DNA of 64,000 bases from a virus. Lineage: Duplodnaviria > Caudoviricetes. Positions 3,537 through 57,129 of this stretch are shown piece by piece (within the stretch, counting starts at the first letter, position 1; the number at the start of each line of letters is the position of its first letter). Location: the IMG/VR virus record IMGVR_UViG_3300024279_000008, positions 1,772-65,771 of that record; one strand, given 5' to 3'. The notes below the pieces were generated by a model. The model had not been told where the DNA came from and searched no databases. It saw nothing but the letters and a program-made list of their open reading frames with translations. A program made the translations under genes and the position numbers.

Positions 3537-6183
3537 ACCCCCAGGTTGCGCCGGCTGCCCTCTCGAAAAGATCGGTGTAGGCTTCGTCCCCTTCCAACTC
3601 CGGAAAGGCCCCATTCTCATGGTCGGGGAGCAACCCGGGGAGGACGAAGCTGCCTCAGGACAGTGCTTCACAGGAGGGTCGGGTCAGTGGCTCAGGAGCC
3701 TTTGTCGGAATGCAGGGATCGATTTCGATCAGGTCTCCCTTACCAACACGGTCCTTTGCAACACCCGACAGGACGGAGCAAACATATATCCCTTAAGTCC
3801 GGATTGGCACCTGACCTCCCGTCAGGATGCAGAACTAGCAATCAAACATTGCACGGAGACATATCTATGGCCGAATATCACACGGAGTGGGAAGGAACGG
3901 GTGTTTGCCATTGGAGCCCAAGCCTTGAAGCAACTCACTGGGAGGGATGGGATTCACACCTGGAGGGGAAGCCCTCTACCGCTCCTCGGGCGGATGGACC
4001 GCCCCAGGGTCATCCCGACGATCCACCCAGCCGCGCTTATGAGGCAGGCAAAGCTTTCCTCCGTAGTTGTCAAGGATCTCAGGAAGAGCTGCATCCTCCC
4101 TCCGGAGAACTACAATCTGTTCCCCACCTTAGAGGAACTAGAAGCTTTCAAATCCCGAAGGTTCGCGTTTGATCTGGAATGGGACGGAGGAGGGAATGTA
4201 ACCTTGTGTGGGCTCTCTGATCGGTTCTACACCGCTTTGGTTGTCCCCTTCCACGAACCCTACCTAGGAATCCTCCGGAGGATCTTCGAGAATGCGACAG
4301 ATATCATTGGACACAATATCATCCAAGCGGATTTACCATTTATTGAAAACCTCGGATGGGATGTTAGTCGCGCTGTTATCCACGATACCATGCTTAAGCA
4401 ACACCTCGTCCAGCCCGACTACCCCCACTCCCTCGCGTTTGTCGCGAGTGTGCTCACAAACAAGGTCTTTTGGAAAGGGAAATGGGAAGCCGAAGAAGAG
4501 CTAGGTGGGGAGGTCTCAGCCCAGCAATGGCGAAGTTGGGACCGACCTTGGGGGCTCCCTCGGGAACTTGGGGGGTATATGGGCTGCCATTCTGCGGTGG
4601 AGGCTTTCAATCTCTACAACGCTCGGGATACCGATGCGGAGTTCCAAATCGACACACCCCTCAGCCAACTTGTAACCCGATACCAGCTCCAGGACGTATA
4701 CAACTACGTCTCGGTACCATCCGCGTATATCTGCCGATCCCTCGGGAGCCAGGGATTGAAACTTGACACCCGCCGACTTGGGGAGGTCCGGTCGAAGCTC
4801 GACTCGGATATCCTCTCCCTTGAGGCCCAACTACCAGAAGGACTAAAACCCTATGACGAAACAGTCAGTTGTAACATCCCCGCCCCACCCGGAACTCTTA
4901 GACCTCGCAGCAAAGTGTGCAAAGGCACGGGCAAGCTACGACACGAACCCTACACAAAGGAATTTCTCCAGGTGGGAGAAGCTCTATGCGAAGTATGTGG
5001 AAGGGTTATGCGATCAGGTAAGCTCCAAGAAGCCAAAATCCTCAAAGGCACCCGCCAAGAGCGGGTCGTCCCGTACAACTCCCCCCAAAAAGTCCAAGCC
5101 TACGTCGCCTCCTTGGAGTTAAAGGAGGTTTATGACACCAAGACCAAGCGGGTCACGACCGGGAAGAAAGCCAGGAAGGTATGGGCAAAGCACCATCCGG
5201 AGTTTACCCTGCTTGGGGGGCTCAAACAGAAAAAGACCCTAAAGGATAACTTCGCGAAGGATGCTCTCCTCGAACAAGAACGAATGTTCTTTAGGCTCCT
5301 AGTTCATGGGACTGGGGAGGGAAGGTTATCATCCAAGGGCCTTCGGCAGGGGATAGATCTAAACATCCAAAACCAGCCCAAGGAGTTCCGGAAGATCTAC
5401 ATCCCCGATCATCCTGACTGGGGATTCCTCAGCCTGGATGTAGTCCAAGGCGAGAACATGCTTACGTGTTGGCTTGCGAAGGACTGGCCGAGGTGGGAGC
5501 GGCTCCAGCAACCAGACTACAATGAGCACTCAGACCTGGCATCCCGGATCTTCAACCGAAAGGTCATCAAAGGGGTCCAGGAGGACGAACCGTTCTACCT
5601 CGTTGGGAAGATATTCAATCACTCCAAGAACTACGGGGCAGGAGCCAGGAAACAACAAGAGATCCTAGCAGAGCATGGGTACGATCACTACACGACGGAG
5701 GACCTAAGGGAATTCAATGCGATCTGGGAAACAATGAATGCAGGAACTGCTCTCTGGCAAAAGCAAACCATCGAGACTATGAACAAACAGGGGTATCTAC
5801 GGAACCCCTTCGGTCGCATGAGGTGGTTTAGTTCCAGGGACTCCGCTGCGAAGGCCCTTGCGTTTATTCCTGCAAGCTCCCTCGCGGATATGGTCCTGAG
5901 GATGATGATTGCGCACTACCCTGGGACACCCCGGATTGGAGAGGCTATCCCGAAGTTGGGTCTTGAGACCTACCTCCCCATCATCCAAGACTGGATCATG
6001 TCCATCCAGGTCCATGATGAGTTGGTTTTCCAGGGACCGTGGGATGGGGTCCAGGAGCAAGCATCCCGGAGCAAGATGATAATGACCCAACCCTGGAGGG
6101 AATTGGATGGGTTTAGATTTGGAGTTGACGTGAAGGCCTCCCAGAAGAGTTGGGGGGAGTGTAAACATTTGGAGGTGGCATAA
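3526..6183 (+). CDS. polA: family A DNA polymerase with N-terminal family-4-like uracil-DNA glycosylase domain and 3'-5' exonuclease
   Basis: UDG: CxxC, GEQPG, HPAALMR. Exo I FDLEW, Exo II HNIIQADL, Exo III YNARD. Pol motifs A DVVQGE, B KIFNHSKNYG, C QVHDELV. Confidence 0.92.
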   Translation: MVPKPPGCAGCPLEKIGVGFVPFQLRKGPILMVGEQPGEDEAASGQCFTGGSGQWLRSLCRNAGIDFDQVSLTNTVLCNTRQDGANIYPLSPDWHLTSRQDAELAIKHCTETYLWPNITRSGKERVFAIGAQALKQLTGRDGIHTWRGSPLPLLGRMDRPRVIPTIHPAALMRQAKLSSVVVKDLRKSCILPPENYNLFPTLEELEAFKSRRFAFDLEWDGGGNVTLCGLSDRFYTALVVPFHEPYLGILRRIFENATDIIGHNIIQADLPFIENLGWDVSRAVIHDTMLKQHLVQPDYPHSLAFVASVLTNKVFWKGKWEAEEELGGEVSAQQWRSWDRPWGLPRELGGYMGCHSAVEAFNLYNARDTDAEFQIDTPLSQLVTRYQLQDVYNYVSVPSAYICRSLGSQGLKLDTRRLGEVRSKLDSDILSLEAQLPEGLKPYDETVSCNIPAPPGTLRPRSKVCKGTGKLRHEPYTKEFLQVGEALCEVCGRVMRSGKLQEAKILKGTRQERVVPYNSPQKVQAYVASLELKEVYDTKTKRVTTGKKARKVWAKHHPEFTLLGGLKQKKTLKDNFAKDALLEQERMFFRLLVHGTGEGRLSSKGLRQGIDLNIQNQPKEFRKIYIPDHPDWGFLSLDVVQGENMLTCWLAKDWPRWERLQQPDYNEHSDLASRIFNRKVIKGVQEDEPFYLVGKIFNHSKNYGAGARKQQEILAEHGYDHYTTEDLREFNAIWETMNAGTALWQKQTIETMNKQGYLRNPFGRMRWFSSRDSAAKALAFIPASSLADMVLRMMIAHYPGTPRIGEAIPKLGLETYLPIIQDWIMSIQVHDELVFQGPWDGVQEQASRSKMIMTQPWRELDGFRFGVDVKASQKSWGECKHLEVA

Positions 6184-6413
6184 TGCCCATACAAGAAGAC
6201 TACCTAACAAGGATTGAAGAACTAGAAGGGATGCTTTATGAGTTCTTAGGGGCGTTCCAAACCGGCCCACGAGGGGGGAACAGTACCTTCGAAGGGGGGA
6301 AGAGTATCCTAGATATCGAGGTATCTGATGAGATCGAAGAATTGATCTGCAAAGCCGAGATGCTCCTAGAGGCTTCGCTATTGGATGAGCCGTTGTTTGA
6401 GGAGGAGGATTAG
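6183..6413 (+). CDS. acidic hypothetical protein
   Basis: TAATG coupling to polA. Confidence 0.55.
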   Translation: MPIQEDYLTRIEELEGMLYEFLGAFQTGPRGGNSTFEGGKSILDIEVSDEIEELICKAEMLLEASLLDEPLFEEED

Positions 6414-6415
6414 GA

Positions 6416-7582
6416 GTGAACCTCTCAATCATCCCACCAGGCTCCTACCTCTCCGCCTGGTGTAGGATGTTATCATGCACGGAGATCCCTATCTCCTACC
6501 AGGTTGCTGGGGGGATAACCCTGATTGGAGCCTGCCTCAAACGGAAGGTCTGGGTGGATCAAAAGAACTGGAAGGTCTACCCAAACCAATCGGTAATGTT
6601 TGTCGGCCCATCAGGGATCGGCAAGGACACCATCATCAACGCAGTGACCCGGGAGATCGAACGGGTCGGGGCAGTACCGATCCTCGGGGGGAAAACCATG
6701 GAGGGGATCAACTACCGCCTCCAAGGCCTCGGCCAGGAGGCTGCATGTTATATCCCCGCAGGAGAGCTGTCCTCCTTCTTCGGTCAGAAGGACTACCAAG
6801 CAGGGATGATCCAGGAGTTCACCGATCTGCTCTCAGGTGGGGACAAGAAGGATATCTCCACCAAGGGGGATCTTTATAGCCATGATGGCAGCCCTGCCCG
6901 GCCCAAGTACATATACAACCCCACCCTCACCCTGCATGGAGGCTCGACCGAGGAATGGCTCCACAAGGCCATGCCAGATGGGACCATGGAGGGTGGGTTC
7001 TTAGGGAGGTTCCTAATTGTCGTGGAGCAATTCGGCCAGAAGCACGTAGCCCTCGTGAAGAACTCCCTCGATCGAGAGGACCTTCAAGCTATCGAGGAGG
7101 CCTCTCAGGAATGGGAGTATGGGATAAAGGAGATCATCGCTCATTATACGAAGCCTACCGAAATGAACCTCCTAGAGGACGCCCAGTTCTACTACACCAA
7201 CTGGTACCACAACCGGTTTAAGTACTTCTCCAAGGTGGTCCTACCGTATGCTAATCGCTCCCGGGATATGGTCCTAAGGCTCGCAATGCTTATGGCCATC
7301 TCCCGTCGCCATTGGAATTGGATCGATGAGGAGGATGTTAAGTTCGGGGCGGATATCCTCTGCGAGGTGGGGAAGTATATCGATAAGGTGGTCCTCCCTC
7401 CCACAAGTGAAGCCCAAGCATCCAGGATGATCCTCCAGATGCTCCCAGCCACCAGCCCCGAGATCTGGAAGGCCCTCAATCAGAAGTTCCCCCTGCGGGT
7501 CCTCCAAGCCGCCGAACAAGTCCTTGCTGGGAGCGGGCAGATATATAGGGATAAGGGAATTTGGAAAGTTAAAGGAGATTAA
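6416..7582 (+). CDS. P-loop NTPase, DUF3987-like helicase domain
   Basis: Walker A GPSGIGKD; ELSSFFG, GFLGRFLIV and LRLAMLMA patterns typical of this family. Confidence 0.7.
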   Translation: MNLSIIPPGSYLSAWCRMLSCTEIPISYQVAGGITLIGACLKRKVWVDQKNWKVYPNQSVMFVGPSGIGKDTIINAVTREIERVGAVPILGGKTMEGINYRLQGLGQEAACYIPAGELSSFFGQKDYQAGMIQEFTDLLSGGDKKDISTKGDLYSHDGSPARPKYIYNPTLTLHGGSTEEWLHKAMPDGTMEGGFLGRFLIVVEQFGQKHVALVKNSLDREDLQAIEEASQEWEYGIKEIIAHYTKPTEMNLLEDAQFYYTNWYHNRFKYFSKVVLPYANRSRDMVLRLAMLMAISRRHWNWIDEEDVKFGADILCEVGKYIDKVVLPPTSEAQASRMILQMLPATSPEIWKALNQKFPLRVLQAAEQVLAGSGQIYRDKGIWKVKGD

Positions 7583-8355
7583 TGAAAAGTAAAATCAAAC
7601 CAAGTAATGTTTTAGTTTTGCCAGACATCCATTTCAAGGCCACCAAAGGTGGAGAGGATAAACGCACCCTGGATGCGGTCCTTCAGTACGCCTCGGACCA
7701 TCCCTGGTCCCATGTCGTCCTCCTTGGGGATGTGATGGATCACAACTCAATCTCCAGCCATAACAAGGGCAACCTTAAGAACGTTGAGGGTGAAACCCTT
7801 ATGAAGGATTACACCGTCGCGAACCGGTGGTTGGATGCCTTGGAGGGAGCAACCCCTGGAGCGGAGAAATGGGTCATCGAGGGGAACCACGATTACCGTG
7901 CAACCCTAGTGGCCGAACAACAACCCCAACTGGAGGGACTAATTGAAACACAGAATGGATTACGAATACTGGGAAGAGGATGGCATTGGGTACCTTACTG
8001 GACTACCGGAGAGGTCTTGGACCTTGGTCGGGCCAGCTTCGGGCATGGTAGATACACTAATAAATATCATGCGGAAAGACATGCCACACGCTACGGTAGA
8101 AATTTCTACTATGGCCATCTCCATGACACCCAATCCTACACAGTAGAGCGGGATGGGGATGATCTGAAGTATGAGGCTGCGAGCCTTGGGTGTCTTTGTT
8201 CCTACCGCCAGTACTGGATGAAGGGTAGGCCATCCAAGTGGCAGCAGGCAATTTCTACATTTAGGTTCCAACCAAATGGGAATTTTAACAGATATACCGC
8301 CAACATTTTTTCTCACAAATTCCTCAGCCCCGAAGGTAAACTCTATGCTGGATAG
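7582..8355 (+). CDS. calcineurin-like metallophosphoesterase
   Basis: DIH, GDVMD, GNHD, GHG and GHLH motifs. Confidence 0.88.
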   Translation: MKSKIKPSNVLVLPDIHFKATKGGEDKRTLDAVLQYASDHPWSHVVLLGDVMDHNSISSHNKGNLKNVEGETLMKDYTVANRWLDALEGATPGAEKWVIEGNHDYRATLVAEQQPQLEGLIETQNGLRILGRGWHWVPYWTTGEVLDLGRASFGHGRYTNKYHAERHATRYGRNFYYGHLHDTQSYTVERDGDDLKYEAASLGCLCSYRQYWMKGRPSKWQQAISTFRFQPNGNFNRYTANIFSHKFLSPEGKLYAG

Positions 8356-8491
8356 ATGCATCCAGGAAGAAAACCGATGTAGGGATGAGATCCTCCGGGA
8401 GAACTGGCACCCTAAGGAAGCACGGTATGGCCTAAACGACTGGTTCGCAGAGGAGTGTTTGATACGATTAGGAGAGATTGGTGGAAGGTAG
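8345..8491 (+). CDS. hypothetical protein
   Basis: Short overlap-coupled ORF (MLDRCIQEENR...). Confidence 0.4.
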   Translation: MLDRCIQEENRCRDEILRENWHPKEARYGLNDWFAEECLIRLGEIGGR

Positions 8492-47769: not shown

Positions 47770-48245
47770 ATCCAGAATCCCCTTGGTGGCGAGCTCGGGA
47801 GAGTTTGCTGATTGATATCCCAACGGGGATCTTCGGACCTGGGTTCAATTCCCAGCACCTCCACCAAGCCATCGGAGCCAATGTAGCTTCTGGCATAAGG
47901 TTTAAGAAAAGTTCATCGTGACTTGGGATAGCTTCCCAGCGCCTGACCAGGATAAAAGGCGGTTTCGGTGGCTCGGTGGGGGTGTAACGGTTTCGACGGG
48001 GACCCACCGGTAAGGTAGAGTACCAGGGGCTAGCGAAAGCCGTCTCTGCGAAGCAGCAACAGGTAGCCGACTACCTGAGAGGAGCCCACGATGCGTGGGA
48101 GCCTCGACAATAGCGGAAAACCAACAACTGCCAATTCCATTGTCAGTAAAGTAACTCGCATTTGGGAACGGATCGTCGAAGCGATCAGCCCTGCGGGTTA
48201 TAGCCCTGCGTTCGCGTAGGGACGATGGGGGCGAAAAGCCCCCTC
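47770..48245 (+). ncRNA. ssrA: circularly permuted two-piece tmRNA (acceptor piece ends 47866; coding piece starts 47978)
   Basis: 3' TLD GGAC-CTGGG-TTCAATT-CCCAG-CACCTCC-ACCA lies upstream of 5' GGGGGTGTAACGGTTTCGACGGGG; G3:U70; tag ORF 48130-48219. Outer ends approximate. Confidence 0.9.
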
Positions 48246-48298
48246 AAGTTTCGAAGGGTATGGTCGCAGCAAAGATTTTGCTCCCTCCTTCACCGGAT

Positions 48299-48400
48299 GA
48301 TACCCCCTGGCAGAGTGGTTAAATGCAGCAGACCCGTTAGGATCTGTGACCCTACTCTATCTGGGTGGGGTCCAAGGGTTCGAATCCCTTGGGGGTATCG
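48299..48400 (+). tRNA. atypical class II tRNA-like RNA with 10-nt anticodon loop; identity unassignable
   Basis: TGGCAGAGTGGTTAAATGC D arm, AAGGG-TTCGAAT-CCCTT T arm, 10-bp variable arm, 7-9 bp acceptor stem, no encoded CCA. Confidence 0.7.
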
Positions 48401-51755: not shown

Positions 51756-52046
51756 ATGAAAGAGACCATACCCGATAAGTTTGGAAGGCAGGTTTGTGTT
51801 GGAAACCCTGGGAGATTCCCAGCAGAGCACCCCAAGGCAGTGGTGGTTTATGATCGGCCTTGGGATTTTAACTGCCCTCCCGGGCAGATCTGCCTTGGGG
51901 AGTATCGGTTGCGTTGTCCGGTTTGCGGGGCAGGGTATGTTTGTGATACCGAGGAACTCAAGAGGCATTTCAACGGGGTGAATATGGCGGCTAAGGCCCA
52001 AGAGGTGGAGAAGTATCTCCAGGGGTTGACAAAGGAGTTGAAATGA
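51756..52046 (+). CDS. hypothetical Zn-binding protein
   Basis: RCPVCG; purine-rich RBS. Confidence 0.55.
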   Translation: MKETIPDKFGRQVCVGNPGRFPAEHPKAVVVYDRPWDFNCPPGQICLGEYRLRCPVCGAGYVCDTEELKRHFNGVNMAAKAQEVEKYLQGLTKELK

Positions 52047-52702
52047 AATACGGATTTGAACGAGAGTATTGGATGGTTGGACCCGATGGACCGGTGATTC
52101 TACCTAAGGATCTGGCATCGGTTCTTACCTACGATGAATGTGGGTATCTCCTAGAGGCCCGAGGTGATCCACATTCCAACCCGATCAAAGCGGCGTGCTT
52201 CTTACTTGCTGAGGAAACGGAGCTATTCCTGAAGGCTCGAAAGAAGGGGATTATCCCTTCAACCAACCCTTCCACATACAAGCTAACTCCTGCTTTCCGA
52301 AAGGATGCTTGGAAGTTATACGGGAAAAATCCATATAATTCCCTCCAAGGAAACATCTACGGGAAGGAGTACAAACCCTCTAATCCGTGGTTCGGGGCAG
52401 GACTTCATGTGCATTTCTCCAACTCCACCGACCAAACCATATCGGTGGAAGGTCAACCTTGTAAGGAATGTGGGCATCGGCACAAGGAAACAAGGAACTA
52501 TTCATACCCTGGAACCTTGGACTTGGCAAAGATTGTCCAGATGCTGGATACAAGATTCAAACAAGAGATCACCGAAGCTAAACGCCTCCCGGGACTCTAC
52601 GAACTAAAGTCCTACGGGTTTGAGTACCGATCCCTGCCTGCATCGGTTGAACCTTTGGCTGTAGCAGAGTGGCTGAGAGAAAACCAGGAGAAGTTTGTAT
52701 GA
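52043..52702 (+). CDS. short COOH-NH2 ligase (glutamine synthetase/GCS fold) family protein
   Basis: YGFEREY, LEARG, GLHVHFS, GFEYRSLP. Confidence 0.65.
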   Translation: MKYGFEREYWMVGPDGPVILPKDLASVLTYDECGYLLEARGDPHSNPIKAACFLLAEETELFLKARKKGIIPSTNPSTYKLTPAFRKDAWKLYGKNPYNSLQGNIYGKEYKPSNPWFGAGLHVHFSNSTDQTISVEGQPCKECGHRHKETRNYSYPGTLDLAKIVQMLDTRFKQEITEAKRLPGLYELKSYGFEYRSLPASVEPLAVAEWLRENQEKFV

Positions 52703-52893: not shown

Positions 52894-53019
52894 ACGCCTT
52901 GATGTTCTTGCGACCCCTAACCTGTCCTGTCCGTCCTGCCAAACCGGGAAGGTCCATCCGCCTGGGGAGTACCGGCACTTTCACCCCCTTGGAGGGCATG
53001 GGCGGACCAGGGAGATTGA

Positions 53020-53304
53020 TTGGACACACCCAGATTTGAAAAAGGAGAGATAACGATGATTGATTGGGACGATATTTGGGAAGGATCTATAATCCTTCTC
53101 GTGACATGCACGATAAGCCTCGGGTTGTATGCGGTGGCTCAACCCCATAACGTGGATTACTACTATCTGAGTCAGGCCTCTGAAGGGCGGGTTTGCACCT
53201 ATGCCCATTGGACTTGGCATTTAGACGAGAAGGCGGGGTGTTTTAACACCCCTCAAGAAGCCACCGACTTTGTAGCGAAAGCAAATCAGGCGATTAAGCA
53301 CTAG
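53020..53304 (+). CDS. membrane-anchored hypothetical protein
   Basis: Hydrophobic segment followed by a disulfide-like C..C domain; likely start at 53056. Confidence 0.55.
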   Translation: MDTPRFEKGEITMIDWDDIWEGSIILLVTCTISLGLYAVAQPHNVDYYYLSQASEGRVCTYAHWTWHLDEKAGCFNTPQEATDFVAKANQAIKH

Positions 53305-53309
53305 GGACT

Positions 53310-53350
53310 GCTCGATACTCCCTTCGGGGAGTGACGAGTTTCCAAGGAGG
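53310..53350 (+). promoter_or_regulatory. conserved leader hairpin, copy 1
   Basis: GCTCGATAC-stem(UUCG)-GTGACGAGTTT followed by AAGGAGG. Confidence 0.6.
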
Positions 53351-53355
53351 TAGGG

Positions 53356-53493
53356 ATGGGATGGATAGTCTACGGAGGGCTGGTGGGGCTACTGGTTTGG
53401 TTTTGGACCGGCACCCCAGGGGCGTGGGAGACGCTCAAGGAGAGTATTCAAAGAGAGTGGGATTTGTTTAAACAAGAAGGGAGGATTAAATGA
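53356..53493 (+). CDS. small membrane protein (45 aa)
   Basis: Read manually: MGWIVYGGLVGLLVWFWTG...; AAGGAGG RBS. Confidence 0.55.
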   Translation: MGWIVYGGLVGLLVWFWTGTPGAWETLKESIQREWDLFKQEGRIK

Positions 53494-53903
53494 CCTACCA
53501 TGTAGCAGTTTATGGTTCCCTTCTCTCCGGCCTACATAACCACGACCGATGGATGGAAGGGGCAGAGCTGGTTGGGACAGGGATTGCTCCTGGGAAGATG
53601 TTCTCCCTTGGGCAGTTCCCTGGAGCGGTCTACCCGGACGATCCCTACTCTGAAGGAGCCCCTTGGATGAAAGTCGAGGTGTATGAGGTCCCGGAGAGAA
53701 CCTTCCAGGGGTTGGATCGGTTGGAGGGGCATCCACAGTTCTACAGGAGGCAGCAGGTCCTCGTGAATATGGACGACACCGATGGGGATGTAGAGTGTTG
53801 GGTGTACTATCTTCCCTCGGAGGATGGGTTGGTACAGAGGATGGGGCAGGAAGTCCCTGACGGGGATTGGAGGAAGTTCCTCCAGGGCAGGGGGCCGGAA
53901 TGA
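53490..53903 (+). CDS. gamma-glutamylcyclotransferase (GGCT/AIG2-like)
   Basis: VAVYGSL..G.HNH, VEVYEV, LDRLEGHP.FYRR. Confidence 0.9.
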   Translation: MTYHVAVYGSLLSGLHNHDRWMEGAELVGTGIAPGKMFSLGQFPGAVYPDDPYSEGAPWMKVEVYEVPERTFQGLDRLEGHPQFYRRQQVLVNMDDTDGDVECWVYYLPSEDGLVQRMGQEVPDGDWRKFLQGRGPE

Positions 53904-54118
53904 CCCGAAGGTTGCTGCTGAGGATGGCTCCGTTTTTCCTCGTGCCCCAAAAACCCGCTGACCTCCAAGCGGAGTTTAACACGCTGGCCAACGACTTCAT
54001 CGCGGACTGGAATACCCTGATGGGGATGGAAGCCCGAGGGAAGTGGGACCGGAAGCTCGCGAGGATGGTGGAGAAGGATTTTGAACGACTCACCGCCCAT
54101 GTTGGGTGGGTGAGGTAG
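53900..54118 (+). CDS. small secreted-type protein
   Basis: MTRRLLL N-terminus; ATGA coupling. Confidence 0.5.
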   Translation: MTRRLLLRMAPFFLVPQKPADLQAEFNTLANDFIADWNTLMGMEARGKWDRKLARMVEKDFERLTAHVGWVR

Positions 54119-54160
54119 GCTCGATACCCTCCAGGGGTGGAGGGTGACGAGTTTAAGGAG
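54119..54160 (+). promoter_or_regulatory. conserved leader hairpin, copy 2
   Basis: GCTCGATAC-stem-GTGACGAGTTT followed by AAGGAG. Confidence 0.6.
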
Positions 54161-54167
54161 CAAACCA

Positions 54168-54677
54168 ATGAAAATCATTGAAGGCATGAAGGAAATTAAA
54201 CGGTTGAATGTCAAACTAGCAGATCTCCAAGCCAAGGTCGGATTGTACTGTGCCGACCATGACTTTGAGCAACCCACCTACCCGGACCAGCAAGGGCAGA
54301 TCAAGGAATGGATTCAGTCCTCGGAGGATACTACCAAACGGATTCTGGCCCTCCGGATCGCAATCCAAACAACCAATCTCCAAACCCCGGTGACGATTGA
54401 GATTGCCGGACGTCAGATCACTAAGTCCATCGCAGAGTGGGTCCACCGTCGAAGAGATCTTGCGAAGATGAACCAGGCTCTCTGGCAGGCTCTCACGAAT
54501 CGAGGGTTGAAGGACGGGGTCCAAAAGACCTCCACTGGGGAGTTAAAGGATGTGAAGGTCCGGTTGTACTTCGACCCCCGAATGCGAGATCAAATGACTG
54601 CGATGTATCGGGACGAGCCCTCCATCATTGATGGGACCTTGGAGGTTGTAAATGCAGTCACCGATCTTGTGATCTAA
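54168..54677 (+). CDS. coiled-coil protein (DIP1984-like N-terminal pattern)
   Basis: MKIIEGMKEIKRL..KLADLQ..., LRIAIQTTNL, SIAEWVHRRRDL. Confidence 0.7.
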   Translation: MKIIEGMKEIKRLNVKLADLQAKVGLYCADHDFEQPTYPDQQGQIKEWIQSSEDTTKRILALRIAIQTTNLQTPVTIEIAGRQITKSIAEWVHRRRDLAKMNQALWQALTNRGLKDGVQKTSTGELKDVKVRLYFDPRMRDQMTAMYRDEPSIIDGTLEVVNAVTDLVI

Positions 54678-54680
54678 CAT

Positions 54681-54972
54681 CTTCGTTGCCGACATAGAGA
54701 GATAAAAACTGGTAAAACCCGACGCTCCCCTAGCGATATAGTGTGGCCCGCTCTGGAATATGAGCAACCAACTGATAATTGGATAAGCTTTGAACCTTAA
54801 GGTTTAAGGATCAAGACTCCAAGGATGCACAGGTTAAAATTTCGTAAGGATGGACGACCCAAGTTTGAAGGATCTAGCAGGGTTAGGTTCCCTGGAATAT
54901 CCTCCAACAGGTTAATGTTTTCGTGTTTATTCCCAGGACCCTTGGAGGCTTCCTCTATGGGCGGCGACGAGT
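54681..54972 (+). ncRNA. candidate approx. 290-nt ncRNA with AAGG/AGG motif array
   Basis: No credible ORF; basal stems TCGTTGCC/GGCGACGA and CATAGAG/CTCTATG close the element. Confidence 0.65.
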
Positions 54973-54989
54973 CAAAGGCAGGAACCTAA

Positions 54990-55262
54990 ATGACCCTCGA
55001 AGAAATCGAACAATCCCTCAAGGCCTCAGCGATGGGACCGGATGGGGAGTTTTATGAGTATCTCCATACACGGTTTGGACCAGGATACATAGAGTTTCCC
55101 ACCCTGCTGCTGATCGATACCTGGGGGGAGGTCTACCGGACCATCCGGTTAATCCAGATGGGGATCGAGGACCCAAAGGATCATCCCTCGGCGGCCTTTT
55201 TGTTGATGCTTTTTGAAGAGATGTATTATCATGGGTATACCCCAAAGGAGAAAAACCGATGA
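54990..55262 (+). CDS. hypothetical protein
   Basis: AGGA RBS; coupled to the next gene. Confidence 0.55.
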   Translation: MTLEEIEQSLKASAMGPDGEFYEYLHTRFGPGYIEFPTLLLIDTWGEVYRTIRLIQMGIEDPKDHPSAAFLLMLFEEMYYHGYTPKEKNR

Positions 55263-55576
55263 AAACCCTAACCCACAACGGTACAACCTACCGGATTGTG
55301 TTCTTTTACCCCCACAAGCACTCAAAGAAGCGTGCAGTGGTGGGATGTCGAGTAACCACCCGGACCTGCTCCCCAGACTCTGGGGAGTTGGTGGCGGGTC
55401 CAGACTACGTAGGGACCGCATCCTGTAACCGGGACTCGGGGGATGAGTTCCAAAAGGAGCTAGGACGGGTCCTGGCCCTGGAACGTGCGGTGGCAGATCT
55501 CCCGCATGATTTGCGCCCCAAAATCCGGGCACTCTATCACCATCGGACCCTCGGGACAGGAGGCGGGAATGTCTAA
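55259..55576 (+). CDS. conserved-type phage protein
   Basis: GTASC...DEF.KELGR.LALERA motif. Confidence 0.65.
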   Translation: MKTLTHNGTTYRIVFFYPHKHSKKRAVVGCRVTTRTCSPDSGELVAGPDYVGTASCNRDSGDEFQKELGRVLALERAVADLPHDLRPKIRALYHHRTLGTGGGNV

Positions 55577-55838
55577 AAAACAACTCCATCTAGAGCAGTT
55601 GATGGCTCAGAGGGATTTTGTCCTCTCGTTGAATGCATTGTCCCCGATCCTCCAGAAGGCCTTAGAGACAGACCTCAACTCCGCGATTGCCTGGGCTGAG
55701 ACCTACTGGCCGGAGACGGAGGAACGGGTTCCTGCACAGGAAAATATCAGCCGAACAACTAACCCGCCTCTTTGGTTTCCTCCGGACGTGGATGAAATCG
55801 TTTGGGAGATGACCGGGGCGATGGCTTGGGGAGGATAA
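55569..55838 (+). CDS. hypothetical protein
   Basis: GGAGG RBS before ATG 55569. Confidence 0.55.
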   Translation: MSKKQLHLEQLMAQRDFVLSLNALSPILQKALETDLNSAIAWAETYWPETEERVPAQENISRTTNPPLWFPPDVDEIVWEMTGAMAWGG

Positions 55839-55842
55839 ACGG

Positions 55843-57129
55843 ATGAACGAGAAGATTTGGATTAGCACAGATAAGGTGGTGGATAAGTATGCCTATAGCA
55901 TCCCCAAGGATACCCCAGTGGTTTTCAAAGGGGACCTACCGGTTGGGGTGCTGGATCGGGGGATTAAACTCTACTCCCCCCCAAGGGATGGGATGGCTTC
56001 TTTCCGGGAAGCAACCCCCGAGGAACTCCAGACTATCCAGGCAGCTCTGGATGCTAAGGCTTTTACCGACCGGGTAAATATTATGGATACCTCCCAATAC
56101 ACAATTGGGTCCGACCCGGAGTTATTCGCGGTCAACAAGGACGGGGTGGTGATTCCTGCATGGAAGTTTCTCGGGTCCAAAACCAGTAGCAGTATTTACT
56201 GGGATGGGTTCCAAGGAGAGTTTACCACCACCGCTCATGGATGCATCGCGTATTGGGTGGATAATTTCCACTACCAACTCAAGCGGTTCAATAGCTACCT
56301 CCACGCATACGACCCTCTCGCCCGGCTCGTGGGGGATTGTGTCCTCCCGATCCCCCCGGAGATGATGGCTGAGACCACCCCAGAGCAGCATCAGCTTGGG
56401 TGTATGCCCTCAATGAATGCGTATGGGGCGGCTGGGGAGGGTGTGGAGCATGGGAAGGCATTGCCAATCCGGTTTGCAGGGTGTCACATTCACATTGGGA
56501 CCCAAGCCTTATCCCCTGAGGAGTTTGTCCGAGCAGTCAAATTCGCTGATGCCCTCGCAGGGGTAATTTCCGTGAGTGTCCTGCAAGGGCTTGAAGACCC
56601 GATGCGAAGGAGGTTCTACGGGTTGGCGGGGGAATATCGGCTCCCTTCGCATGGGTTGGAATACCGGGTCCTATCGAGTGCTATCACTTGGCACCCGGCG
56701 TTGGTACATTTCTTCTCGAACCTTGTAAGGATTGCAGTAGGGGCTGCCAGGGCTGGGGCTGAGGGCCTCTGGAAAGTCTCCGAGGAAGAGGTTCAACACA
56801 CGGTTAATACCTTGGATATCCACCAGGCCCAGGAGATCATCCTCCGGAACCGAGGGGTGTTGGAGGATATTCTTGGGAAGTTGTATGGGACCAACCAACC
56901 GACCCTGGGAGGTAGTGAGTACATCCCCTGGGGAGTCCCTTCGCCTCAGCGGATCGTGGATGAATTCATCCTTCAAGGGGTGAAGAAGTATATCCCCCTG
57001 GACATCGAGCAAAACTGGCTTCTCAAAGGCGGGTGGGTGGCCCACTCCGAAGGCCCTCAAGTGATGATGTGGCGGGCACTCAAGACCTGGTTAGATGGGT
57101 GGGAGTATGTCCCGCCTGGGAGTAGATAA
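55843..57129 (+). CDS. phiEco32-like COOH-NH2 ligase
   Basis: IGSDPELF, DGFQGEF, LGCMPS, GCHIHIG, YGLAGEYR, GLEYRVLS. Confidence 0.88.
   Translation: MNEKIWISTDKVVDKYAYSIPKDTPVVFKGDLPVGVLDRGIKLYSPPRDGMASFREATPEELQTIQAALDAKAFTDRVNIMDTSQYTIGSDPELFAVNKDGVVIPAWKFLGSKTSSSIYWDGFQGEFTTTAHGCIAYWVDNFHYQLKRFNSYLHAYDPLARLVGDCVLPIPPEMMAETTPEQHQLGCMPSMNAYGAAGEGVEHGKALPIRFAGCHIHIGTQALSPEEFVRAVKFADALAGVISVSVLQGLEDPMRRRFYGLAGEYRLPSHGLEYRVLSSAITWHPALVHFFSNLVRIAVGAARAGAEGLWKVSEEEVQHTVNTLDIHQAQEIILRNRGVLEDILGKLYGTNQPTLGGSEYIPWGVPSPQRIVDEFILQGVKKYIPLDIEQNWLLKGGWVAHSEGPQVMMWRALKTWLDGWEYVPPGSR

Follow-up and report, generated by a model that had tools for sequence, protein, structure and literature searches.

Introduction

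TRAP and HutP are oligomeric proteins that read NAG triplets at regular spacing, in the trp leader and in hut messenger RNA (mRNA), respectively. HutP reads UAG triplets with a spacer of 4 nucleotides (nt), which are arranged with a period of 7 nt in two sets. Phages encode ornate, large non-coding RNAs, such as GOLLD and ROOL, to which no function has been assigned and which often adjoin or enclose transfer RNA (tRNA) genes. The YrlA Y RNA has a tRNA-like domain with a topology of T-arm, capped acceptor stem and D-arm (PMC4201824). Here, we describe the AAG-rail RNA, which is encoded in a 64,000-nt stretch of DNA (hereafter, the window) from a virus of the class Caudoviricetes, positions 1,772 to 65,771 of the IMG/VR record IMGVR_UViG_3300024279_000008. 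The phage genome is complete, with a length of 65.8 kb and direct terminal repeats, and the window covers nearly all of it. The RNA directly follows the gene of a 169-residue protein (54168-54677), which is helical and appears as a distant relative of the DIP1984/DUF6847 family. Based on the comparison of related loci, the segment 54683-54970 almost certainly encodes a genuine non-coding RNA on the + strand. This RNA belongs to an uncatalogued phage family, for which we found no Rfam family and no describing paper, and it is very probably coupled in function to the 169-residue protein. All features of the RNA and of its partner gene given below lie on the + strand and are numbered by window position.

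Results

Comparative evidence for the RNA

There are 312 nt without a convincing gene between the end of the 169-residue gene and the next ATG at 54990. The RNA begins after a gap of 5 nt, and neither promoter-like nor terminator-like sites were predicted on the + strand between the gene and the RNA. An initial annotation, made from the sequence of the window, had noticed that the ends of this region are complementary (54683-90 with 54963-70, and 54693-99 with 54953-59) and that its interior has five exact AAGG motifs, at 54799, 54806, 54821, 54846 and 54868. All of these coordinates are correct. The outer part of the closing stem, P1, pairs TCGTTGCC (54683-90) with GGCGACGA (54963-70) and includes one G-U pair, while the inner part pairs CATAGAG with CTCTATG. 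The end duplex has an energy of -24.2 kcal/mol, which is better than any of 3000 random window pairs of the same geometry (mean -6.6, best -21.6), and the five AAGG, which fall within 75 nt, form a cluster found at a single place in the 64 kb. As a single sequence, the + strand of the region folds no better than its shuffles (z = -0.93). Rfam 15 gave nothing that overlaps the RNA at E ≤ 1 in 53000-56500, and a scan of the whole window at gathering thresholds gave only a permuted transfer-messenger RNA (tmRNA) elsewhere. On eight related loci, Rfam found only ordinary flanking tRNAs, including at loci whose RNAs hold tRNA-like modules. Since the single-sequence fold is unexceptional and Rfam is silent, proof of the RNA must be comparative.

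At E ≤ 1e-3, at least 526 homologs of the 169-residue protein are found, and many of these are 55-73% identical to it. A blastn comparison of the regions 3' of the homologous genes at the first 12 loci shows two short conserved blocks, one at each end of the intergenic region. The stem that adjoins these blocks varies in sequence and stays complementary; CATAGAG/CTCTATG in the window is replaced by CCAAGAG/CTTTTGG, CATTAAG/CTTAGTG or CAAACAG/CTGTTTG elsewhere. RNAalifold, applied to 16 members, gave 31 pairs, 21 of which have compensatory double changes. A covariance model, R1, was built from 12 members and searched in the window and in 84 loci fetched via the protein. It matches 84 of these 85 sources, once in each and always on the strand of the gene. 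The sole miss is L083, a contig that ends 109 nt past the gene, and among further close relatives in genome contigs the RNA is present in 7 of 7. In the window, the only R1 match covers 54684-54969 with 201.6 bits and an E-value of 2e-53; the E-values of R1 are rough by construction, and the bit scores, which range from 17 to 243, and the pattern of one match per locus are independent of them. The closing stem extends the RNA to 54683-54970, which gives a length of 288 nt (about 287-290). The initial annotation had proposed to test whether a basal stem and repeats are conserved in the regions downstream of homologous genes, and its expectation is clearly borne out by these matches, by the covariation of P1 and by the conserved array described below.

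In an alignment of 78 distinct sequences, 92.1% of the pair cells are standard pairs, compared with 67% in shuffled alignments and 31-52% when the partners are slid. Compensatory changes are found at 23 of 27 pairs, with 543 cells changed on both sides, a level reached by none of 500 shuffles. A naive covariation screen of all pairs of columns was swamped by G-U noise. The frequent G-U intermediates in the pairs show that the functional strand is the + strand, and they rule out a signal carried by double-stranded DNA. Regular short direct repeats between inverted ends, in a region that is AT-richer than its flanks (GC 0.44-0.47), would also be expected of a DNA-level element, such as an iteron origin or a packaging or recombination site in which the inverted ends are DNA signals. 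This explanation is highly improbable, because the pairs are kept through G-U, which is an A-C mismatch on the other strand (for example, two P1 pairs have 17 G-U cells each), because R1 matches lie on the strand of the gene in 84 of 84 cases, and because helices 250 nt apart show compensatory changes and the RNA has a pseudoknot.

The region had been called gene-free. In fact, it overlaps an open reading frame (ORF) of 54 residues (54825-54989), which starts with ATG and ends exactly at the start codon of the next gene; what stands of the claim is that this ORF is not conserved. Only 15 of 67 relatives have the corresponding frame open. Moreover, the predicted peptide has no Pfam or PHROG match, the ORF lacks a spaced ribosome-binding site, its ATG abutting AAGG directly, and the substitutions between members maintain base pairing and not codons. 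In L010-L013, the gene callers left the RNA free of predicted genes. We judge the ORF spurious and give practically no credence to the idea that the region encodes this peptide.

Architecture of the RNA

The AAG-rail RNA can be described as a closed and knotted core, a variable slot and a repeat array. P1 is formed by a 5' strand, 54683-54699, and a 3' strand, 54953-54970. It has compensatory changes at 14 of 16 pairs and 92.3% of its cells are paired, and its frequent G-U pairs fix the strand. Two segments consist of invariant alignment columns, the 5' core AGAUAAAAA (54700-54708) and the 3' core GGCUUCC (54947-54953). A long-range pseudoknot joins the side of the 5' core to the loop of the 3' hairpin. 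Its 5' strand, 54709-54722, is composed of CUGG (54709-12), AAAC (54715-18) and CGA (54720-22), which pair with CCAG (54933-36), GUUU (54925-28) and UCG (54921-23), respectively, in the 3' strand, 54921-54936. The pseudoknot was evaluated by an alignment-free swap test, in which the duplex energies of each RNA with its own partner strand were compared with those of partners swapped across RNAs. Own partners have a mean of -7.91 kcal/mol and swapped partners of -4.93 ± 0.24 (z -12.4), and none of 10000 permutations reached the observed value. All 10 pseudoknot pairs have compensatory changes, on a model alignment that was not fitted to those helices.

The 3' hairpin (54901-54948), the loop of which carries the 3' strand of the pseudoknot, is made of P3 (54901-06/54943-48) and P4 (54909-11/54940-42). 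P3 has 94.6% of its cells paired and compensatory changes at 5 of 6 pairs, and P4 has 95.2% of its cells paired. A small hairpin with a conserved GCGAUA loop is tentatively placed at 54723-54746, where a mini-pseudoknot CGC/GCG may also form. Its flanking stem covaries in 10 members caught by a pattern (own -5.3 vs swapped -2.0, z -4.8) and is weak in the window (-1.6). Behind the array there is another hairpin, 54878-54894, in which CAGGG (54878-82) pairs with CCCUG (54890-94). A hairpin of differing sequence is present at this place in 94% of 71 members, with a mean minimum free energy of -7.3, compared with -2.5 in shuffled sequences. The initial account included neither the pseudoknot, nor the slot for a tRNA or tRNA-like element, nor the layout of the array in two halves.

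The AAG-repeat rail

The rail extends over 54796-54875 and consists of two half-arrays split by a spacer. The units of the first half are at 54799, 54806, 54813 and 54821, with a degenerate CAG at 54830. Those of the second are at 54846, 54861 and 54868, with a degenerate ACG at 54854. Four of the window units are AAGGAU and one is AAGGUU. Family-wide, there are 6.8 in-register AAG units per RNA and each half-array has 4-5 units. Successive AAG are spaced by 7 nt in 207 cases and by 8 nt in 138 cases, which together account for 345 of the successive distances. The repeat had been described as AAGG/AGG. AAGG is the most frequent 4-mer, with G following AAG in 54% of the units, and the invariant part is AAG alone, at a period of 7-8 nt.

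Among relatives of about 30% protein identity, which have no R1 match, there are still two AAG half-arrays with a period of 7-8 nt and a hairpin between them, and their units are mostly mixtures of AAGA, AAGU and AAGG. These loci, L106-L114, are on genome contigs binned as Synergistaceae, Acidobacteriota and other metagenome-assembled genomes (MAGs); the RNA there is a different one, with AAG half-arrays around a GC-rich hairpin. Judged from their sequences, these loci suggest a superfamily of gene-RNA pairs. Since the array is kept where the rest of the RNA is unrecognisable, no other feature follows the protein as faithfully, which is our chief reason for predicting that the array is the protein-binding platform.

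The initial annotation had offered, as an alternative to a scaffold, that the RNA is a sponge for host factors that bind Shine-Dalgarno (SD) or GGA motifs. In this explanation the RNA would act independently of the protein, either as a CsrB/RsmZ-like sponge for host CsrA or as an SD decoy for 30S subunits, and the window units AAGGAU and AAGGUU do resemble CsrA sites and partial SD sequences, in motifs that are many and close. However, AAGGA occurs in only 53 of 502 units family-wide (10.6%), the fourth base is often not G, and the distant arrays are the mixtures described above. Furthermore, the units are outside hairpin loops, the phage genome encodes no CsrA (a host CsrA could still exist), and the strict linkage to the DUF6847 gene would be left unexplained. 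The sponge is improbable on this evidence, and the corresponding part of the initial interpretation is not supported. The peptide-coding, DNA-element and CsrA/SD-sponge readings were rejected on frame, on G-U and strand, and on unit evidence, respectively.

Linkage of the RNA and the gene

The viral collection was also scanned independently of the protein, with a DNA pattern of the 5' core. Five places were found. Four of them adjoin a DUF6847 gene; the remaining one falls within a large coding gene and is a match by chance. When 2650 ORFs from 91 loci were clustered, the DUF6847 gene was the only family common to all loci; other flanking families occur in at most 9 of the 91, apart from shadow ORFs within the DUF6847 gene itself. 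The position of the RNA was recorded at 77 distinct loci. Downstream of the gene, its distance is at most 60 nt at 45 loci, 61-500 nt at 20 and over 500 nt at 5, and at the remaining 7 the RNA lies upstream. As the same pairing recurs amid flanking genes that are otherwise not shared, the gene and the RNA move together among phage genomes that are otherwise unrelated.

Nucleotide and protein searches of cultured phages (INPHARED) gave nothing, and the subfamily is known from metagenomes only. A scan of genome contigs returned mostly short MAG contigs of many phyla and one 311-kb Bryobacteraceae contig, from which no reliable host could be assigned. The short MAG contigs that carry the gene are probably mis-binned phage.

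The partner protein

The 169-residue protein scores below the curated cut-offs of both family models that it resembles, with 16.7 bits (E 0.0076; cut-off 27) for PF20935 (DUF6847) and 22.5 bits (E 1e-4; cut-off 70) for the NCBIfam model DIP1984_fam NF038048. PF20935 is carried by many of its close homologs, according to precomputed annotation. The AlphaFold2 model (predicted local distance difference test score of 93) has long helices and two small β-hairpins. The sole full-length structural match of the model is 3KDQ, a protein from Corynebacterium diphtheriae without assigned function (Foldseek E 2.4e-4, TM 0.56-0.61). The two align with a VIA Z of 12.8 over 149 of 152 residues, though with a root mean square deviation of 8.0. 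Structure neighbours in a protein atlas are labelled 'putative Septicolysin' and have PF20935. Based on the predicted model, the protein is a distant DIP1984/DUF6847 relative that has its whole fold in common with 3KDQ. The literature on DUF6847, DIP1984, septicolysin and phage tRNA-like ribonucleoproteins gave no function and no RNA partner for this protein family.

The ribosome-binding region of the 169-residue gene (54144-54170) reads UUUAAGGAGC, which resembles the array unit UUUAAGGAU. This likeness could permit autoregulation, or it may simply reflect a strong SD site.

The variable slot

The slot (54750-54782) is located between the core and the array. In the window, it comprises a D-arm-like hairpin, GCUC (54750-53) with GAGC (54762-65), and an anticodon-arm-like hairpin, in which CCAA (54768-71) and UUGG (54779-82) enclose the 7-nt loop CUGAUAA (54772-78). 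The same CCAA/UUGG stem is found with other 7-nt loops, CUGCCAA, AUGUGAA, CUGCUAA and CUUGAAA, in four members (L030, L062, L082 and L074). The content of the slot differs widely among 74 distinct members. A complete cloverleaf tRNA is present in 28, and T-arm and/or D-arm pieces are present in 20 more. The other 26, including that of the window, have no recognisable tRNA arms beyond the anticodon-arm-like hairpin. In at least five members (about 5-7; L063, L079, L092, L035 and L074), the pieces have the permuted order T-arm, capped acceptor stem, D-arm. This variety suggests tRNA-like 'heads' that are interchangeable between members.

The slot tRNAs often have odd anticodons, such as TCA (called as tRNA-SeC, a UGA reader) and the A34 anticodons AAT, ATT, ACT and AGG, or loops that ARAGORN cannot name. 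Examples are embedded in the slots of L028 (=L004; 3615-3689 of that locus) and L071 (=L007; 2406-2478), and inside the RNAs of L022, L037, L027 and L055. To judge from their anticodons, they may act as mimics or as suppressors, and not decode in the ordinary way. Further tRNA genes lie within 150 nt of the RNA in 12 of 83 loci, and ARAGORN finds no tRNA gene in the 64-kb window.

The complete tRNAs at a fixed slot and these additional tRNA genes nearby would fit an RNA whose main task is to carry phage tRNAs and tRNA-like pieces or to be a scaffold for their processing, as a structured precursor cut by RNase P and RNase Z. In YrlA, there is a precedent in the capped tRNA-like module that is cut by RNase P and given CCA (PMC4201824). 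A related possibility is that the RNA titrates the protein in a regulatory role. Under both views, the real target of the protein would be elsewhere, and the RNA would do no more than control the protein or come under its control. However, the 26 members without further tRNA arms keep the core, the pseudoknot and the array intact. The unmodified-looking A34 anticodons or irregular loops of several slot tRNAs suit mimics better than decoders, and a conserved array of 9 units is needless for a mere precursor. We consider this explanation unlikely, and favour the reading in which the array serves the partner protein.

Genomic surroundings

The + strand gene block around 54168-54677 includes a gamma-glutamyl cyclotransferase and COOH-NH2 ligases of the phiEco32 type. 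Two phiEco32-like COOH-NH2 ligase homologs and the cyclotransferase, at 52043-52702, 53490-53903 and 55843-57129, form a cluster of the peptide-modification type that encloses the RNA-protein pair. The permuted tmRNA of the window has two pieces. ARAGORN places it at 47774-48310, with a tag peptide of 29 residues, and its Rfam match (RF04321; 47830-48002, + strand) has 59.8 bits against a gathering score of 47.

RNA ligase together with polynucleotide kinase-phosphatase is an RNA-repair context that is typical of phages facing anticodon nucleases. The closest long relative of the window, L010 (70% protein identity), has an RNA ligase (PF09414) and a polynucleotide kinase-phosphatase-like gene (KTI12/AAA_33/HAD_PNKP), at 5746-6660 and 7461-8357 of that locus. 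These genes are 1-3 kb downstream of the RNA, with a tRNA-Pro between, and they are not conserved across loci.

Discussion

The homologs keep the stem and the repeats, and the RNA and the gene are the sole conserved neighbours of each other. For these reasons, an RNA-protein module is the best reading of the locus, and the scaffold proposed in the initial annotation survives in this form. It is fairly probable that the knotted non-coding RNA and the upstream DIP1984/DUF6847-like gene are the two parts of such a module, in which the array would be a multivalent platform. The narrower claim that the 169-residue protein itself binds the AAG rail directly is marginally favoured, on the sequence patterns described here.

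A possible sequence of events can be outlined. The RNA would be transcribed together with the gene, given the short gap and the lack of a predicted terminator between them, and the transcript would then be trimmed back to P1. By analogy with TRAP and HutP, the single-stranded AAG rail would be bound by several protein copies, each occupying one unit or two. The knotted core would hold out the variable slot, which would present a tRNA, a permuted tRNA mimic or an anticodon-arm-like hairpin. The resulting particle could be a carrier, or a decoy that acts on host factors that recognise tRNAs. Some role linked to such factors is the conjecture that we find most attractive, and a tRNA-decoy role is doubtful at present. 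A more specific version is that the particle is widespread among phages, with a row of DUF6847 protomers on the AAG rail and an exchangeable slot that carries a whole tRNA, a permuted tRNA mimic or a bare anticodon arm with a loop that varies from phage to phage. Such a particle would work as a programmable decoy or trap, directed at host defences that cleave tRNAs or at host enzymes that modify them; this we put forward as speculation that is unlikely to hold.

Several observations weigh against this scheme. The 169-residue protein has no recognised RNA-binding domain, and its sole structural relative, 3KDQ, has no known function. Protein binding, co-transcription and trimming of the RNA are all inferred from sequence. 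The array might bind a host factor while the protein acts elsewhere, and the linkage may exist because the RNA regulates the protein, or the protein the RNA, and not because the two form a stable particle. Finally, the slot of the window has neither a T-arm nor an acceptor stem, and folded alone it is no better than its shuffles, so that the tRNA-mimic reading is weak for this member.

If the module is real, the RNA represents a class of phage non-coding RNAs that is new and has its own protein partner, and hundreds of uncultured phage genomes carry it. The design, in which a knotted core is combined with a periodic single-stranded rail and a slot for interchangeable tRNAs or mimics, would have no described counterpart. 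It would give the first functional handle on the DIP1984/DUF6847 ('septicolysin') family, for which a crystal structure has existed since 2009, and it may reveal a new phage route around host tRNA-targeting immunity or tRNA metabolism.

Among known systems, GOLLD and ROOL are likewise ornate phage RNAs near or enclosing tRNAs. They are much larger than the AAG-rail RNA and are not known to have a dedicated partner gene or an AAG rail; their Rfam models do not match at E ≤ 1 in 53000-56500 or at gathering scores in the whole window. CsrB and RsmZ also collect many short purine motifs in one non-coding RNA. Their conserved GGA, typically located in hairpin loops, is read by CsrA or RsmA, whereas the units of the AAG rail lie outside hairpin loops, adjoin a dedicated gene and do not conserve GGA (53 of 502 units).

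YrlA and other Y RNAs with their Ro60 (Rsr) protein resemble the AAG-rail RNA in being modular, with paired ends, and encoded beside a presumed protein partner, in phages. The tRNA-like module of YrlA is in permuted order, as in the slots of the five members noted above. However, YrlA has neither an AAG array nor a pseudoknotted core, and the AAG-rail RNA is 2-3 times longer. The complete 65.8-kb phage genome has no Ro60/TROVE domain (PF05731), in a search in which positive controls matched. The motif GNCGAAN0-1G of the Ro60-binding stem (PMC4201824) is absent from 54683-54970 and occurs anywhere in only 15 of 74 members, and the slot of the window does not have the T-arm/acceptor/D-arm module of YrlA. 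Y RNA with Ro60 is thus the nearest analogy for the overall logic of closed ends, an adjoining partner gene and a tRNA-like module, its defining features being absent here.

The targets of TRAP and HutP are closer in their mechanism. They have NAG triplets with short spacers, and the AAG-rail RNA has such regularly spaced triplets, as AAG with spacers of 4-5 nt in two half-arrays. The HutP-like period of 7 nt and the half-arrays suggest one protomer per unit. The 169-residue protein has no match to TRAP or HutP by Pfam; the structure searches list only 3KDQ as a full-length match, and absence from that list does not exclude the fold. In contrast to the TRAP and HutP targets, the AAG-rail RNA is a stand-alone, knotted non-coding RNA, not an mRNA leader, and its partner is helical and 3KDQ-like. 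TRAP and HutP can be regarded as the nearest mechanistic analogy to the AAG rail, not as its relatives.
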